Shown piece by piece: positions 15,667 to 37,600 of a DNA stretch of 64,000 nt; position 1 is the stretch's first letter; each line of letters starts with the position of its first letter. The position numbers were made by a program, and so were the translations under genes. Below the pieces are notes generated by a model that worked only from the letters and a program-made list of their open reading frames with translations, was not told the origin of the DNA and ran no database searches. The stretch covers positions 9,168-73,167 of the forward strand of contig DATFGQ010000034.1 of the NCBI GenBank assembly GCA_035249305.1. The letters are read 5' to 3'. Source of the stretch: Blastocatellia bacterium (GTDB taxonomy: Bacteria > Acidobacteriota > Blastocatellia > UBA7656).

Positions 15667-16018
15667 AAGCCCTGATAGGGTATGATTCTATAGCCAAGCA
15701 TCGCTCCCGCTCACTTAAGCCCCGTAGGGGCGCTATTCAACAGCCAGGGGCAACGCCCCTGGAAACTGATTGTTAATAATGAGAAGCCCTGATAGGGCGC
15801 GATAAGAGTATCGCCCTTTCAGGGCTTTGTCTTGTATGCGTGCGTAACCCGGCGCGTTGCGCCGGGCTATTGAATCACGCCCCTACGGGGCTTTCGGCTA
15901 TTGAATCGTCGCCCCTACGGGGCTTATTGAATTACGCCTCTTCGAGGCTCGCGGGCAGGGCTATTGAATCGCCGCCCCCGCGGGGCTTATTAAGTCTTAT
16001 AGCTCCGGGGCTTTCAGA
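15667..16018. repeat. Family B composite tetraloop-hairpin repeat (copy B2)
   Basis: It contains the same core as B1 and B3. In addition it has four to five tandem 28-35-nt units of CTATTGAAT plus a small hairpin (GCCCC-TACG-GGGGC, GCCTC-TTCG-GAGGC, GCCCC-CGC-GGGGC). It sits between convergent genes. Confidence 0.85.
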
Positions 16019-23053: not shown

Positions 23054-23686
23054 ATGCTCGCTCAAGGGTCTTACACATCTGCGTCCGTCGAAATGCCCGT
23101 GTCCCAGGGTACTGACAGGCTTTACAACCTTGCCACCGCACTTGATGAAATAAACGAAGGCGCAGTCTTCATGAACTGCGAAGGACAGCTCGTCTGGCAC
23201 AACCGCGCATTCGACCGGCTGCTGGTCGAGAACCGCGAGGGCCACCATCTGGTCGCCGCAGTCATAGAGCTCGCGGGCGACTTCTACCAGGAACTCTACA
23301 CGGCATCGGACCGCGCGGCGGGCGACGAGCAGGGCCTTGTTTCGCTCGCTCGCGACGTTACCGTAGGCCGGATCGACCACGAGATTCATTGCACGTTGAT
23401 GCCCAAGGGGATGCTGGGGCTTGACAGCTACGTGCTCTGCCTCATAAAGCGCTCGGCGTCGCGGTGGTCGAGCTACGAAGAACACTTGCGCCAGACCTGG
23501 GGGCTTACGGAGCGCGAGGCGCAGGTGGCCGTCGAGTGCCTGCGCGGCAAAAAGAACCTCGAGATAGCCGAGCGGCTCAGGATAAGCGTAGAGACGGTCA
23601 ATAAGCACCTGGACAAGGTCTATCAAAAGGCCGGGGTGCGGGGGCGGTCCGAGCTGGCAAGCCGCCTGCTCGACAGCGGCATCTGA
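23054..23686 (+). CDS. LuxR-family transcriptional regulator with an N-terminal PAS-like sensor (EpsA-like)
   Basis: 210 aa. The C-terminal HTH is LTEREAQVAVECLRGKKNLEIAERLRISVETVNKHLDKVYQKAGV. The N-terminal GAVFMNCEGQLVWHNRAFDRLL is PAS-like. Confidence 0.8.
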   Translation: MLAQGSYTSASVEMPVSQGTDRLYNLATALDEINEGAVFMNCEGQLVWHNRAFDRLLVENREGHHLVAAVIELAGDFYQELYTASDRAAGDEQGLVSLARDVTVGRIDHEIHCTLMPKGMLGLDSYVLCLIKRSASRWSSYEEHLRQTWGLTEREAQVAVECLRGKKNLEIAERLRISVETVNKHLDKVYQKAGVRGRSELASRLLDSGI

Positions 23687-23727
23687 AGGCTTGCGCTGGC
23701 CGCAACCAAGAGCTTATTTTAACTGTA

Positions 23728-23997
23728 ATGCGAATCGAGAAAAGTTCATCAACAGTCTTCACGCCTCTCGACGATGGGAGGGCCGTCTTGTTGAACCTCG
23801 ACACACTCTTCTACTACAGGTTGAATCGCACGGGCGCGGCGCTGTGGAAGCAGATCGAAGAGAGCAAAACGATCATGCTCGACGACCTTGTGCGCGGCGC
23901 CTGCGAGCGGTTCGACGTCGACGAAGAGGGCGCTCGCCGCAGCGTCAGCTCTTTTGTGGAGCGGCTCGAAGAGTACAAGATGGTTCACATCGTTTGA
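23728..23997 (+). CDS. PqqD-family (RiPP-recognition-element-like) small protein
   Basis: 89 aa. The segment VLLNLDTLFYYRLNRTGAALWKQIEESKTIMLDDLVRGACERFDVDEEGARRSVSSFVERLEEYKMV matches the PqqD/RRE pattern (beta-strands then LN.T...W, then a three-helix bundle). Confidence 0.7.
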   Translation: MRIEKSSSTVFTPLDDGRAVLLNLDTLFYYRLNRTGAALWKQIEESKTIMLDDLVRGACERFDVDEEGARRSVSSFVERLEEYKMVHIV

Positions 23998-24110
23998 GCG
24001 CGGGCAGACCATCTGGTCGCCTGAAGCCGCCGAGGCGGCCTTCGGCTTTGTAGTCTTCAGCCTCGGGCTATGCAGCTTTCAAATCTCGCCATCTAACTTC
24101 CGCTGTTTGA

Positions 24111-24125
24111 GTGACACCGTTTGTC
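24111..24125. promoter_or_regulatory. Inverted repeat TGACA-N5-TGTCA, candidate enhancer-binding-protein site
   Basis: It lies about 100 bp upstream of the sigma54 -24 element, the usual distance for a bEBP UAS. There is no other support. Confidence 0.2.
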
Positions 24126-24220
24126 ATCGCGATTTCCGATATTTGTTAACCCTCTTGGGTAGCGCCGCGCGCGGCTTACGGATTTTAAGGAGTTAAGACT
24201 ACCCGAAAGGGCTATGGTAG

Positions 24221-24236
24221 CTGGCACGCACGTTGC
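24221..24236 (+). promoter_or_regulatory. Sigma54 (RpoN) -24/-12 promoter
   Basis: TGGCACGCACGTTGCT is a perfect match to the consensus TGGCACG-N4-TTGCW. Confidence 0.65.
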
Positions 24237-24498
24237 TCAAGTGAAGAAACGCAGCCTGAGAAGGCTGTCTGGCGGAAGGGGTCAAGGGGGCGATGCCTTC
24301 TGCTTCTTAACTGAGAGAAGCGACAGAACTAAATTGGAAATGCCACAAAGGTCGAGGTCATGGGGGCGACGTCGACTTTTGTGGCTCGCTTCATTGCGCA
24401 GTATTTTCATAGAAAGTTCACCCTCTATTAAGGCAGTTGCAACGGATCGCGTTTATCATTCTTCTAACAGAGTGGTTGCAAAGGAGGGATTGGTAAGA

Positions 24499-24705
24499 AT
24501 GTCAGCAGTACTTCCAAGCGTGGAATCATTCGTCACAGGGCAAAAGGTATTAACGGGGTTCGGGCCGGGGGTGGTATCGGCCATCAGCCGAGTAGATTCG
24601 ATAATCTACGTGACGCTCTCAAACGAGCCCACGGGGCTCTACATCATGCGCCCCGAGCAAGTCGAGCCTTTTGACGGCGAGCAGGCGTCTGACGATAACC
24701 CGTAA
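24499..24705 (+). CDS. Hypothetical 68-aa protein
   Basis: A strong RBS, AAGGAGGG, lies 10 nt upstream of the ATG at 24499. This is the C-terminal part of track ORF 24214..24705. The product is MSAVLPSVESFVTGQKVLTGFGPGVVSAISRVDSIIYVTLSNEPTGLYIMRPEQVEPFDGEQASDDNP. Confidence 0.45.
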   Translation: MSAVLPSVESFVTGQKVLTGFGPGVVSAISRVDSIIYVTLSNEPTGLYIMRPEQVEPFDGEQASDDNP

Positions 24706-24744
24706 ATTGCTCCCGACAGATTAGCCCTCCCGGCGGAGGCTGTT

Positions 24745-24876
24745 ATGGAGTTTATGACTATCACGACAATGTCGGAAGGTCGTCGCTACATTGCGATCTA
24801 CCGTAAATGGTTCAACGAAAAGCTGGGCGCGTGGGAGCTTGAGATGGTGCCCGGCACGCTACGCTGGATCAATTGA
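24745..24876 (+). CDS. Hypothetical 43-aa small ORF (below the ORF-track cutoff)
   Basis: GGAGG lies 5 nt upstream of the ATG. My own translation is MEFMTITTMSEGRRYIAIYRKWFNEKLGAWELEMVPGTLRWIN. Confidence 0.3.
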   Translation: MEFMTITTMSEGRRYIAIYRKWFNEKLGAWELEMVPGTLRWIN

Positions 24877-24972
24877 CGGCCCCGTTTGAAAAGCTAATGA
24901 AATAAAACGAAGCACTATCGGCCCGCCGGTCTTCTTTTATCGCCGCAAGCCTTGCCGCACTAAAACTGCCTT

Positions 24973-25167
24973 TTACTCGTATATCTCGAAAAAAGCATCA
25001 ATGCTTTCAAGCAGTTGCCGCTTTATCTGTTCCGGCGTGCCTTCAATAGTGTGCAGAGTCACCTGGCGCGTCTGCCCGTCTTCCATCAGGATCTGCCCAT
25101 GTTCGACCGCTGCAAGCTCTTCGCCCGAAACCAGCCTCAGGCCATAAACCAACGTCTTCTTGTCCAT
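24973..25167 (-). CDS. Hypothetical 64-aa protein
   Basis: A track ORF with plausible codon usage and only a weak RBS (AAGAAG). No recognisable motif. Confidence 0.35.
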   Translation of the reverse strand: MDKKTLVYGLRLVSGEELAAVEHGQILMEDGQTRQVTLHTIEGTPEQIKRQLLESIDAFFEIYE

Positions 25168-25240
25168 ACTTCTTAGTGTAATAGCTGGTGCATTTGGAGA
25201 AAATAGTTAAAGTAAAGAAAAAAAGATCAAAATATTCGAG

Positions 25241-25260
25241 GTCTGTAAACACAGACTTTT
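25241..25260 (+). terminator. Small plus-strand hairpin plus T-tract
   Basis: GTCTGT-AAAC-ACAGAC followed by TTTT. The stem is short (6 bp). Confidence 0.3.
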
Positions 25261-25324
25261 GAAGAGTTTATCGTGATTGGTTGGAATTATTGCGGAGTCT
25301 TAATAATTTACTTTAACTTTTTGC

Positions 25325-25353
25325 TTGCATCCCATTGAGAGGTATGGTATAAA
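25325..25353 (+). promoter_or_regulatory. Near-consensus sigma70 promoter TTGCAT-17-TGgTATAAA
   Basis: TTGCAT is at 25325-25330 and TATAAA at 25348-25353, with a 17-nt spacer and an extended -10 TG at 25345-25346. Confidence 0.55.
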
Positions 25354-25361
25354 CCACGCCC

Positions 25362-25493
25362 GTAAACAACACCGCTTTATGTTCCTGCCATAAAGCGGTT
25401 CTGTTTTGGCGGTGCGCTGGGGGAAGGAACATTCAGAAAGGGGGCTACTGAATGTTCAAGGGGGCTTGTCGATTAGACGACCTAGCGCACCGC
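25362..25493 (-). ncRNA. Candidate about 130-nt sRNA with three single-stranded CCCCC motifs
   Basis: It is bounded by a minus-strand promoter (25497-25525) and an intrinsic terminator (25371-25399 plus GUUGUUU). The hand fold gives a closing stem 25484-25493 / 25409-25418, a 10-bp hairpin GAACAUUCAG/CUGAAUGUUC and a small GUCG/CGAC hairpin. There is no ORF with an RBS. Confidence 0.5.
25371..25407. terminator. Bidirectional intrinsic terminator hairpin
   Basis: ACCGCTTTAT - 9-nt loop - ATAAAGCGGT (10-bp stem). The plus-strand tail is TCTGTTTT and the minus-strand tail is GTTGTTT. Confidence 0.6.
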
Positions 25494-25496
25494 AAC

Positions 25497-25525
25497 ATCA
25501 TACGCATTTCACCCTTCCAAGTCAA
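25497..25525 (-). promoter_or_regulatory. Near-consensus sigma70 promoter TTGACT-17-TATGAT (minus strand)
   Basis: On the minus strand TTGACT is at 25525-25520 and TATGAT at 25502-25497, with exactly 17 nt between them. Confidence 0.6.
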
Positions 25526-25786
25526 GAACTTCTTTTATTCGTGCGTTTACCTCCACAAGCGATCTTTTTCAGGCATATCTTTGGGATAATCAACAGTTTG
25601 CGGCCATGATTTAAATATCTGGCCTCAGATTGACAACGCTTTCGGCCGTGTGCTAAAAGCATCTGCGACAAGTGCAAATTGTGTTTAACCGGCAGCATTC
25701 TTTTCTCTTTAAGAAGTCAGTATTGATCCGAGCAGTCTTAGCGCGCGCTATAATTATATTCATGCGCGCCTCGTTTGGGGTTTACA

Positions 25787-26806
25787 ATGGCAGACGAAAG
25801 CAATGATAAAGTAGACAAGCCGACGACCGAGAGCACTGAAGAGTCGAAAGAGAGTCCGAAGACTACCGGGGCCGACGTTCCTGAAAAAGCTCAGCCGCTT
25901 CCGCCCGAAGCCGGCTCCGTCGACCCTGCCGCCGAGATCGCGGCCAAGACCAAGGATACGCTGCCCGCCGGAGAGAAACCGAAGACCGAAGCCAAGGCCG
26001 AAGAGGCGCTGCCGGGCGTAGAGAAGCCGTCAAAGACTCCTGCCGTTGAAGGGGCGAGCGAAAAGGGCGAGCCTGCCACGCCTGAAAAGGTTGCGCCAAC
26101 ACCTCCGAAAGAAGGCGCCGCTTCCGTAAAGCCCGCGCCGCCGCGCGCTCCCGCCGCTGAAAAGGCGGCGGGTGAAAAGCCCGCTCCGCCGAAAGCGGCT
26201 CCGGCGGCCGGTCACAAGCCTGCGCCGCCGGCTAAGAAGGGGCCGATCGTCACCGTAGATATAACCGGCGATGCTCTGATCGATAAGATCAAACAGCGTT
26301 TCGGCGAGGCCGTCACCGAAGCCGTCGCCACGTTCGGCCAGCAGATCATCCGCGTCAAGAAAGAGTCGTTCGTCGAACTGTGCCTCTATTTGAAAGAGGA
26401 CGAGGACACGCTTTTCGATATGTGCAGCGACCTGACGGCGCTGCACTGGCCGGAGCGCTCGGGTCAGGAGTTCGATGTCGTAGTGATGCTCTACTCCGTG
26501 CCGAAGAATCGCCGCCTGCGCATCAAGGTCGCCATAGCCGACGGCGAGACCTGCCCGTCTGTTACGCACATCTGGGAAGGCGCGAATTGGATGGAGCGCG
26601 AGGCGTATGATATGTTTGGGATTCGGTTCGAAGGCCACCCCGACCTCAGGCGAATACTGCTTCCGCCCGACTGGCCGGGATACCCCTTGCGCAAAGAGTA
26701 CCCTATCGAGTATCGCGATAACGAGTGGACCGACAAGCATCTTCAGTATCGCGAAGTCGATTACGACACCAGCTTGATCGACGTGAAGTACGCGGAGAGA
26801 AGGTAG
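25787..26806 (+). CDS. nuoC: NADH-quinone oxidoreductase subunit C with an N-terminal low-complexity extension of about 150 aa
   Basis: Track ORF from 25775 (TTG); the ATG at 25787 gives MADESND. Residues 1 to about 152 are Pro/Ala/Lys/Glu-rich. The C-terminal half has NuoC motifs ([47 protein letters not shown]). Confidence 0.85.
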
Positions 26807-37309: not shown

Positions 37310-37600
37310 AAAGCCCTGAAAGGGCTTGATTCAATAGCCAGGGGCACCGCCCCTGGAAACGGATTGATAATAATGAAAAGCCCTGAAAGGGCGATATGAC
37401 TATCGCGCCCTTTCAGGGCTTAATCTTGTATGACGCGTCACCCGGCGCGTTGCGCCGGGCTATTGAATCACGCCCCTACGGGGCTTTCGGCTATTGAATA
37501 TCGCCTCTTCGAGGCTTTCTATTGAATCATGCTCCTGCGGGGCTTATTGAATGCCGCCTCTTCGAGGCTTTCTATTGAAGCGTGTCTCCTTTGGGATTCT
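37310..37600. repeat. Family B composite tetraloop-hairpin repeat (copy B3)
   Basis: It has the same core as B2 in the same orientation. Four CTATTGAAT-hairpin units follow (GCCCC-TACG-GGGGC, GCCTC-TTCG-GAGGC twice, GCTCC-TGC-GGGGC). It sits between convergent genes. Confidence 0.85.

Follow-up and report, generated by a model that had tools for sequence, protein, structure and literature searches.

A conserved structured-RNA locus of Blastocatellia and the strands that carry its helices

Introduction

In the stretch of Blastocatellia DNA analysed here (64,000 nucleotides of contig DATFGQ010000034.1, called the window), a non-coding region ahead of the nuo operon raises the question of which of its strands selection has kept as RNA, and which motifs that RNA would expose. 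An initial annotation had described the region as a novel minus-strand small RNA of about 130 nt with three exposed CCCCC motifs. The question has some general interest, as Acidobacteria are among the most abundant soil phyla and the locus is a well-defined, conserved small-RNA candidate absent from Rfam. To our knowledge, and as far as a literature search showed, no small regulatory RNA has been characterised in this phylum.

The non-coding block of about 230 bases, conserved in Blastocatellia, is a real structured-RNA gene that represents a new family of a kind already known. Most of the anatomy given in the initial annotation holds, but it was probably mistaken about the strand, about how many motifs are exposed and about a functional tie to nuo. 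The locus illustrates how a single sequence can lead to the structured strand being misassigned, with promoter and terminator pointing one way and the record of G-U pairs the other.

Conservation and extent of the element

Searches of Blastocatellia genomes and soil metagenomes recovered 88 copies, making it conserved in roughly 90 sequences of soil Acidobacteria, with the element present in 6 Blastocatellia genomes and about 80 soil-metagenome contigs. The metagenomes were scanned with the pattern ACAAGCCCCC-N10-16-AGTAGCCCCC, which returned 87 stretches, 80 of them with the whole element; one further copy came from a look-up based on the LuxR-type protein encoded nearby, and, of 14 Blastocatellia loci with nuoC, nhmmer detected the element ahead of that gene in 6. 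The copies comprise 69 distinct core sequences, whose alignment columns are on average 89% identical. The 20 positions of the search pattern, which lie in loops, are invariant in the metagenome set by construction, and a subset free of this bias is provided by 8 sequences that were found through neighbouring proteins and synteny, with no DNA pattern; both motifs are kept in these as well. The expectation that relatives would conserve the structure was thus borne out, in that homologues were found and their helices covary. Among the nuoC-linked relatives the element is 89-98% identical at the nucleotide level, compared with 70-92% for the NuoC domain, and the closest NuoC relatives all belong to metagenome-assembled genomes of Blastocatellia (Acidobacteriota).

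Conservation stops sharply at the -35 hexamer of the minus-strand promoter, upstream of which the DNA is unrelated among loci. The other limit lies about 35 nt upstream of a TTGCAT hexamer, at approximately 25299, that is, some 70 nt past the hairpin regarded as the terminator of the minus-strand RNA. By these limits the whole block, for which a role of both strands is proposed below, extends from about 25299 to 25530.

The initial annotation could not place its RNA in an Rfam family, and a cmscan search of 25000-25900 on both strands agrees with it: there was no match in Rfam 15 up to E=10, including RsaE, 6C, CcsR/cuckoo, RsaI/RsaOG, 6S and SRP. The analogy that had been drawn with the anti-Shine-Dalgarno RNAs RsaE, CcsR and cuckoo has, accordingly, no family match behind it, and the two G-rich Shine-Dalgarno sequences of the window cited in its favour are anecdotal.

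At the gathering score, the whole window gave three Rfam hits only, all to Acido-Lenti-1 (RF01687; gathering score 37), at 15848-15892 (+), 37441-37485 (+) and 15718-15762 (-), with 41.3, 41.3 and 38.4 bits. The two plus-strand copies are identical over the matched 45 nt and lie 21.6 kb apart.

Fold of the window copy

The minus strand from 25493 to 25362 is identical to the RNA first described, and a 10-bp closing stem, a 10-bp hairpin and a hairpin at 25399..25371 are all present in its predicted fold. The minimum free energy (MFE) of this 132-nt RNA is -57.3 kcal/mol, against -29.1 +/- 3.4 for shuffled sequences (z = -8.35), and none of 200 shuffles folded as well. The fourth element, a GUCG/CGAC hairpin, proved weak: three of its base pairs are kept on the minus strand, but divergent relatives use another register. 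In the arrangement proposed here, this RNA (25362..25493, minus) becomes the antisense partner, as judged from its sequence and fold; it is complementary to the whole of the plus-strand domain and would end at the hairpin HP.

On the plus strand, the window copy reaches an MFE of -63.5 kcal/mol, and the centroid is the same structure as the MFE. Its core, supported by pairing, parsimony and MFE, is a three-way-junction domain at 25409..25493 closed by the 13-bp helix P1 (25409-25421 with 25481-25493), which in the window contains one G-U pair, 25419/25483. Within the junction stands the hairpin P3 (25427..25457), with 10 bp and an 11-nt loop, AAAGGGGGCUA (25437-25447), that carries the first exposed G-track. 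The second G-track lies in the junction strand AAGGGGGC (25458-25465), which is followed by the small hairpin P2, UUGUC/GACGA (25466-25480); both are placed by the plus-strand MFE. P2 has 3-5 bp, and divergent relatives pair GCUU/AAGC in its place.

Beside this domain lies HP (25364..25406), a hairpin of 6 + 11 bp flanked by an A-tract and a U-tract, which can form on either strand and is listed by the terminator scan as terminator-like on both. Its loop, including the closing pair, reads GGCAGGAAC on the minus strand and GUUCCUGCC on the plus strand, and is invariant in 69 of 69 sequences.

Strand of the conserved helices

A comparison of the pairing of each helix on the two strands, over the 69 sequences, was central to the question of strand. 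In P1 (69 x 13 cells), 87.2% of cells are paired when read on the minus strand and 100.0% on the plus strand; every cell that is not Watson-Crick is C-A or A-C on the minus strand and hence G-U on the plus strand. P3 behaves similarly, with 95.8% paired cells on the minus strand and 99.4% on the plus strand, and the opposite holds for HP, with 96.3% on the minus strand and 91.6% on the plus strand. The minus strand had been taken as the structured one, and for P1 and P3 these figures contradict that assignment. Paths through three pair states (of the UA, UG, CG type) are found at five pairs of P1 and one of P3, on the plus strand only: one such pair is UG in 35 sequences, UA in 22 and CG in 12, and another is GC in 40, GU in 25 and AU in 3.

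When changes were counted by parsimony on a neighbour-joining tree from a short alignment, P1 and P3 together gave 49 changes that enter or leave a plus-type wobble, against 1 of minus type. P1 accounts for 36 wobble events, all of plus type, together with compensatory changes from GC to AU at three pairs; P3 accounts for 13 plus-type events and the single one of minus type. In HP, 21 changes are minus-type, 12 plus-type and 17 double compensatory. The same division is seen in the 8 synteny-found sequences, where P1 and P3 contain 18 plus-type cells and 0 minus-type, and HP contains 9 minus-type and 3 plus-type. Folding energies agree with the pair counts: the P1-P3 domain has a mean MFE of -43.5 kcal/mol on the plus strand versus -33.7 on the minus strand and is more stable on the plus strand in every one of the 69 sequences, the minus strand gives the more stable HP in 64 of 69, and the RNAalifold consensus energy is -52.1 (plus) versus -38.6 (minus).

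A simple mutational bias as the source of the strand pattern was ruled out, because the changes span all four transition types and what is barred is a pair state and not a base change. The covariation test proposed for the minus-strand stems had a divided outcome, with compensatory changes indeed seen, but with the wobble pairs of P1 and P3 fitting the plus strand and only HP fitting the minus strand better. This comparative record shows that selection keeps the P1 and P3 helices on the plus strand. With P1 and P3 tolerating G-U pairs of the plus strand only, and HP mainly those of the minus strand, the pattern of substitutions is indirect, evolutionary evidence that both strands are used as RNA.

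The position of the minus-strand start bears on the same point. The predicted start, 6-7 nt after the -10, falls within the 5' arm of P1, and in four sequences the minus -10 abuts P1, so that a minus RNA would there be without most of this arm; P1 is nonetheless fully kept in these four.

Exposed motifs

The initial annotation held that all three CCCCC runs were unpaired. Two of them are, but the third is paired in the MFE structure, in which two of its bases pair with the GG after the closing stem. Comparison of relatives extends this pairing: CCC of the third run pairs with the GGG after the 5' arm, and the resulting 3-bp extension of the stem, conserved and covarying, gives the 13-bp P1. 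In most relatives the third run reads CCCC, UCCC or CCUC, and the window form with CCCCC occurs once among the 69 distinct sequences. On the strand proposed to be transcribed, two of three C-runs are thus unpaired, and the helices that would hold them in place contain C-A mismatches.

Because the helices that present the loops are maintained on the plus strand, the loop motifs of the folded RNA would be two copies of AGGGGGCU and not CCCCC, and the exposed motifs are, on this comparative evidence, probably GGGGG rather than CCCCC. The motif, AGGGGGCU(A/U), has one copy in the P3 loop and another in the junction strand, and AGGGGGCTW occurs in the window at these two places only. In the P3 loop, AGGGGGCUA is invariant; most of it belonged to the search pattern, and it is invariant too in the 8 synteny-found sequences.

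Promoters and transcript ends

The minus-strand promoter, TTGACT-17-TATGAT, was found as claimed at 25525..25497 (block A). It agrees with the consensus at 10 of 12 positions and was the sole promoter-like site listed in a consensus scan of 24500-26500. In relatives, TTGAC and TATGAT or TATTAT, separated by a variable spacer of 17-18 nt, are present in 69 of 71 sequences; L116 and L136 keep the domain with TTGAC absent. In type the promoter agrees with the TTGACA-16/17-GATAAT promoters that tRNA-Arg genes have on the contigs carrying the element. With a good sigma-70-type promoter and a terminator-like hairpin on that strand, a minus transcript of some 130 nt is plausible.

A second promoter-like site, recognised by its conservation, lies on the plus strand at 25325..25353 and consists of TTGCAT (25325-25330), 17 nt and TGG-TATAAA (25345-25353). 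Directly upstream of its -35-like hexamer is a nearly invariant T/A-rich block, CTTAATAATTTACTTTAACTTTTTGC (25299..25324, plus), which is a candidate UP element or regulator site. Together they form block D, which reads TTACTTTAACTTTTT(T/G)C-TTGCAT-17 nt-TATAAn on the plus strand, is almost invariant in 67 distinct sequences and is unique in the window. TTGCAT and TATGnTAnAA are 90-100% conserved, with a TG one base ahead of the -10, and the segment that follows the -10 is GC-rich and variable, with a predicted start near 25360. Compared with the consensus the site is weak: it matches 3 of 6 positions in the -35, the last base of its -10 is never T (unlike in the tRNA-Arg promoters), and the scan did not list it. 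Conservation beyond the needs of a promoter suggests a regulator site. A sigma-54 reading of CTTGCAT was rejected by eye, there being no GG at -24. Elsewhere in the window, neither the element nor block D nor AGGGGGCUW recurs.

About 140 bp separate the two promoter-like sites, which point towards each other. For the plus RNA, no terminator was found after P1 in about 20 loci; on that strand HP followed by UCUGUUUU resembles a terminator ahead of the domain. A possible hairpin between the spacer of the plus promoter and the start region was also considered. Matched partners pair slightly better than shuffled ones, and neither RNAalifold nor a mutual-information scan found a hairpin between these segments, many lineages being without it.

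Coding potential

It had been stated that the element contains no open reading frame with a ribosome-binding site. This is not so on the plus strand, where AAGGGGG, 7 nt ahead of an AUG at 25452, opens a 45-codon frame (MFKGACRL...) that starts in P3. This frame is not conserved, its length varying between 7 and 132 codons and several lineages having frameshifts after codons 2-4, and in one relative (L007) a 1-nt deletion falls within the span of a 39-codon frame on the minus strand. Exact look-ups in a protein collection aimed at short assembled transcripts returned neither the plus nor the minus product. The element has the features of a free-standing small RNA, namely its own promoter, a defined end (HP with U-rich tails), no conserved open reading frame and varying neighbours.

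Neighbouring genes

The plus-strand genes from 25787 onward are nuoC followed by nuoD, H, I, J, K and L. The position just upstream of the nuo operon is as the initial annotation gave it, but the RNA it described is oriented divergently to nuoC, and the element is missing from 8 of the 14 Blastocatellia loci with this gene. Among the 73 loci with room on the P1 side, the neighbour is tRNA-Arg(TCG) in 43, tRNA-Lys in 1, nuoC in 18 and another gene in 11. The tRNA-Arg(TCG) gene lies on the minus strand and ends a median of 92 nt before the element, with a range of 27-202 nt over the 43 loci (for example L086, L102, L082 and L100); it is preceded by pilT and a zinc-ribbon protein gene and has its own promoter. 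No tRNA gene is present in the window. The adjacency to nuo is, from this gene order, probably incidental, and the suggested link to respiration through nuo is contradicted by synteny.

The other side of the element is more constant, with a LuxR-type gene in 52 of 56 loci with room. An obligate linkage to LuxR was rejected as not absolute, as three LuxR loci (L168, L169 and L173) are without the element within about 2.5-4 kb. In the window this gene (23054-23686, plus) encodes a regulator of 210 aa with a GerE helix-turn-helix domain (E = 1.6e-13) and an N-terminal part with a weak PAS_4 match (E=0.12). It heads a conserved plus-strand cassette (23054-24876) of luxR, a PqqD-family gene (23728-23997, plus; E = 1.6e-16), a 68-aa open reading frame (24499-24705) and a 43-aa open reading frame (24745-24876) that is 60-98% identical across loci; the cassette adjoins an exopolysaccharide cluster. 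The combination of PqqD with small open reading frames suggests a peptide-modification (RiPP-like) unit.

Several further features of the flanks were observed. A 64-aa open reading frame on the minus strand (MDKKTLVYGLRLVSGEEL..., 24973-25167) is 71-92% identical in 16 related loci, where it is always found about 170 nt downstream of the element; its product has no Pfam match. A terminator-like hairpin at 24917-24930 (plus) lies between the convergent 43-aa (+) and 64-aa (-) frames. This hairpin would end the luxR-pqqD-ORF unit, and a plus RNA would therefore need a promoter of its own. On the nuo side, a GC-rich inverted repeat, GCGCGC-15 nt-GCGCGC, is located at about 25738-25766 (plus), with TATAAT in its loop, and ends some 20 nt before the nuoC start; it could be a promoter, operator or attenuator of nuo. 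NuoC itself (25787-26806, plus) has a low-complexity N-terminal extension, rich in P, A, E and K and about 160 aa long, and the operon opens with nuoC, nuoA and nuoB not being directly upstream.

Proposed model and alternative explanations

Taken together, the comparative data favour the view that about 25299-25530 is a small-RNA locus of its own in Blastocatellia, with two promoters that face each other and drive transcription of both strands, a reading to which a probability of about one half is given. The plus RNA would start near 25360 and consist of a 5' hairpin, HP, with the loop GUUCCUGCC, followed by the three-way junction closed by P1, which would expose AGGGGGCU twice, in a hairpin loop and again in the junction strand. 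The minus RNA would start near 25490 from TTGACT-17-TATGAT, run for about 130 nt as a perfect antisense of the junction domain, and end at HP acting as its terminator, a function that is assigned to HP because of the U-rich tail and the better pairing on the minus strand. HP may also end the tRNA-Arg unit where that gene is present. Block D would be the regulated promoter of the plus RNA and block A a housekeeping-type promoter of the minus RNA. The two RNAs are expected to pair and limit each other, as in SdsR/SraC; the plus RNA may act in trans through its G-tracks, its CU-rich loop or both, and the neighbouring LuxR-type regulator may activate the plus promoter by way of the invariant block ahead of it. 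With two transcribed strands, all four conserved blocks are explained. Against this arrangement stands the fact that the plus RNA would run antisense into a tRNA in 44 loci (43 of them tRNA-Arg).

The other explanations differ mainly in which part of the record they leave out. The original proposal, a trans-acting minus-strand RNA of about 130 nt whose unpaired C-runs act on G-rich ribosome-binding sites, with no role for the plus strand, has the best promoter of the locus (10/12, conserved), the better minus-strand pairing of HP with its U-rich tail, the co-directional tRNA-Arg with the element just downstream of it in 43 loci, and a canonical small-RNA layout of promoter, structure and terminator. 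It does not account for C-A mismatches that affect single pairs of P1 and P3 in up to 64% of sequences, never as G-U and with compensatory changes nonetheless, and it meets further difficulty in a third C-run that is paired and variable, a start that lies inside P1 with most of the 5' arm lost in four sequences, and a 55-nt invariant block past the terminator that is left unexplained; it is judged unlikely. All the plus-type wobble evidence, and the two sequences with the domain but without TTGAC (L116 and L136), would be accommodated by an RNA of the plus strand only, for which TTGAC...TATGAT is a conserved 3' tail or a protein site and HP pairs well on the minus strand only through its further role in terminating the upstream tRNA-Arg unit. 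A pair of housekeeping-consensus hexamers separated by a variable spacer of 17-18 nt, as found in 69 of 71 sequences, is, however, the signature of a promoter, and loci without tRNA-Arg, the window included, keep the minus-type pairing of HP, which makes this reading doubtful.

A regulatory region that acts as DNA, whether through operators or by terminating convergent units in both directions, and yields no stable RNA of its own, would be consistent with a block D conserved without covariation and with the placement of HP between convergent genes in many loci. Compensatory and wobble-mediated changes with a strand-specific tolerance point instead to selection on RNA folding, and an 85-nt three-way junction is superfluous for a terminator, leaving this explanation with little likelihood. 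It is still harder to see the element as a plus-strand 5' leader of the nuoC-L operon or as its cis-regulator. The plus RNA of the window does head towards nuoC, which begins 294 nt beyond P1, but nuoC is the next gene in only 18 of the 73 loci with room, where 44 have a convergent tRNA; 8 of the 14 Blastocatellia nuoC loci do not have the element, and the DNA between element and nuoC is not conserved. The constant co-oriented position of a leader is thus lacking, and synteny led to the rejection of this very improbable candidate. Scarcely credible, finally, is a small protein gene in either the 45-codon plus or the 39-codon minus frame: the Shine-Dalgarno-like AAGGGGG 7 nt ahead of the AUG at 25452 would suit it, but the plus frame ranges over 7-132 codons with frameshifts, the span of the minus frame is broken in L007, and neither product is on record in the protein collection.

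The two-stranded locus could be extended to a mutually antagonistic switch, although this extension is speculative and, with all its parts taken jointly, improbable. In such a switch both RNAs would be regulators that titrate each other, each with targets in trans, and growth state would be coupled to the exopolysaccharide/PqqD cluster. The C-rich minus RNA would be made from its housekeeping-type promoter, and perhaps in addition along with tRNA-Arg at loci that have this gene, and the plus RNA, with its G-tracks and CU-rich loop, from a promoter controlled by the adjacent LuxR-type sensor-regulator. If true, it would be the first description of a small-RNA circuit from Acidobacteria.

Comparison with known systems

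In RsaE/RoxS of Firmicutes, the 6C RNA of Actinobacteria and CcsR/cuckoo of Alphaproteobacteria, C-rich loops pair with G-rich sites. The minus strand of the present locus is similar in having two unpaired AGCCCCCU motifs, a length of about 130 nt, its own promoter and a terminator hairpin. It differs in that no Rfam covariance model matches it up to E=10, a hairpin loop holds just one of the C-runs, the third run is paired, and the helices are not maintained on this strand. Another parallel is 3'ETS-leuZ of E. coli, a small RNA derived from a tRNA trailer: in 43 loci the tRNA-Arg(TCG) gene, which has the orientation of the minus transcript region, ends a median of 92 nt ahead of it, with HP as the first terminator-like hairpin to follow. 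The element, however, has its own promoter, as does the tRNA, and it also occurs without a tRNA, as in the window.

For the plus strand, RsaI of Staphylococcus aureus offers a likeness, as its G-tracks bind C-rich small RNAs and its CU-rich region binds ribosome-binding sites (bioRxiv 10.1101/278127). The plus element, at about 140 nt, likewise has two conserved G-tracks on a hairpin domain and a separate unpaired pyrimidine-rich segment (the loop GUUCCUGCC). There is no Rfam or sequence match to RsaI, and the CU-rich segment is here a hairpin loop of 7-9 nt, where that of RsaI is long and interhelical. The one C-rich partner known for the putative plus RNA is its own antisense.

The pair SdsR (RyeB)/SraC (RyeA) of enterobacteria, two overlapping small RNAs for which mutual processing has been proposed (PMC3333887), resembles the proposed arrangement in having small RNAs on opposite strands of one intergenic locus, with extensive complementarity and with one partner better conserved and structured. 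It is unlike the Blastocatellia locus in that the two have no sequence relation and belong to different phyla, the present pair being predicted from sequence alone, and in that here both promoter blocks are conserved and the shared hairpin closes one RNA at its 3' end and opens the other at its 5' end. Should both strands prove functional, the locus would be a compact natural pair of sense and antisense small RNAs with one common hairpin, situated beside a one-component regulator and an exopolysaccharide cluster.
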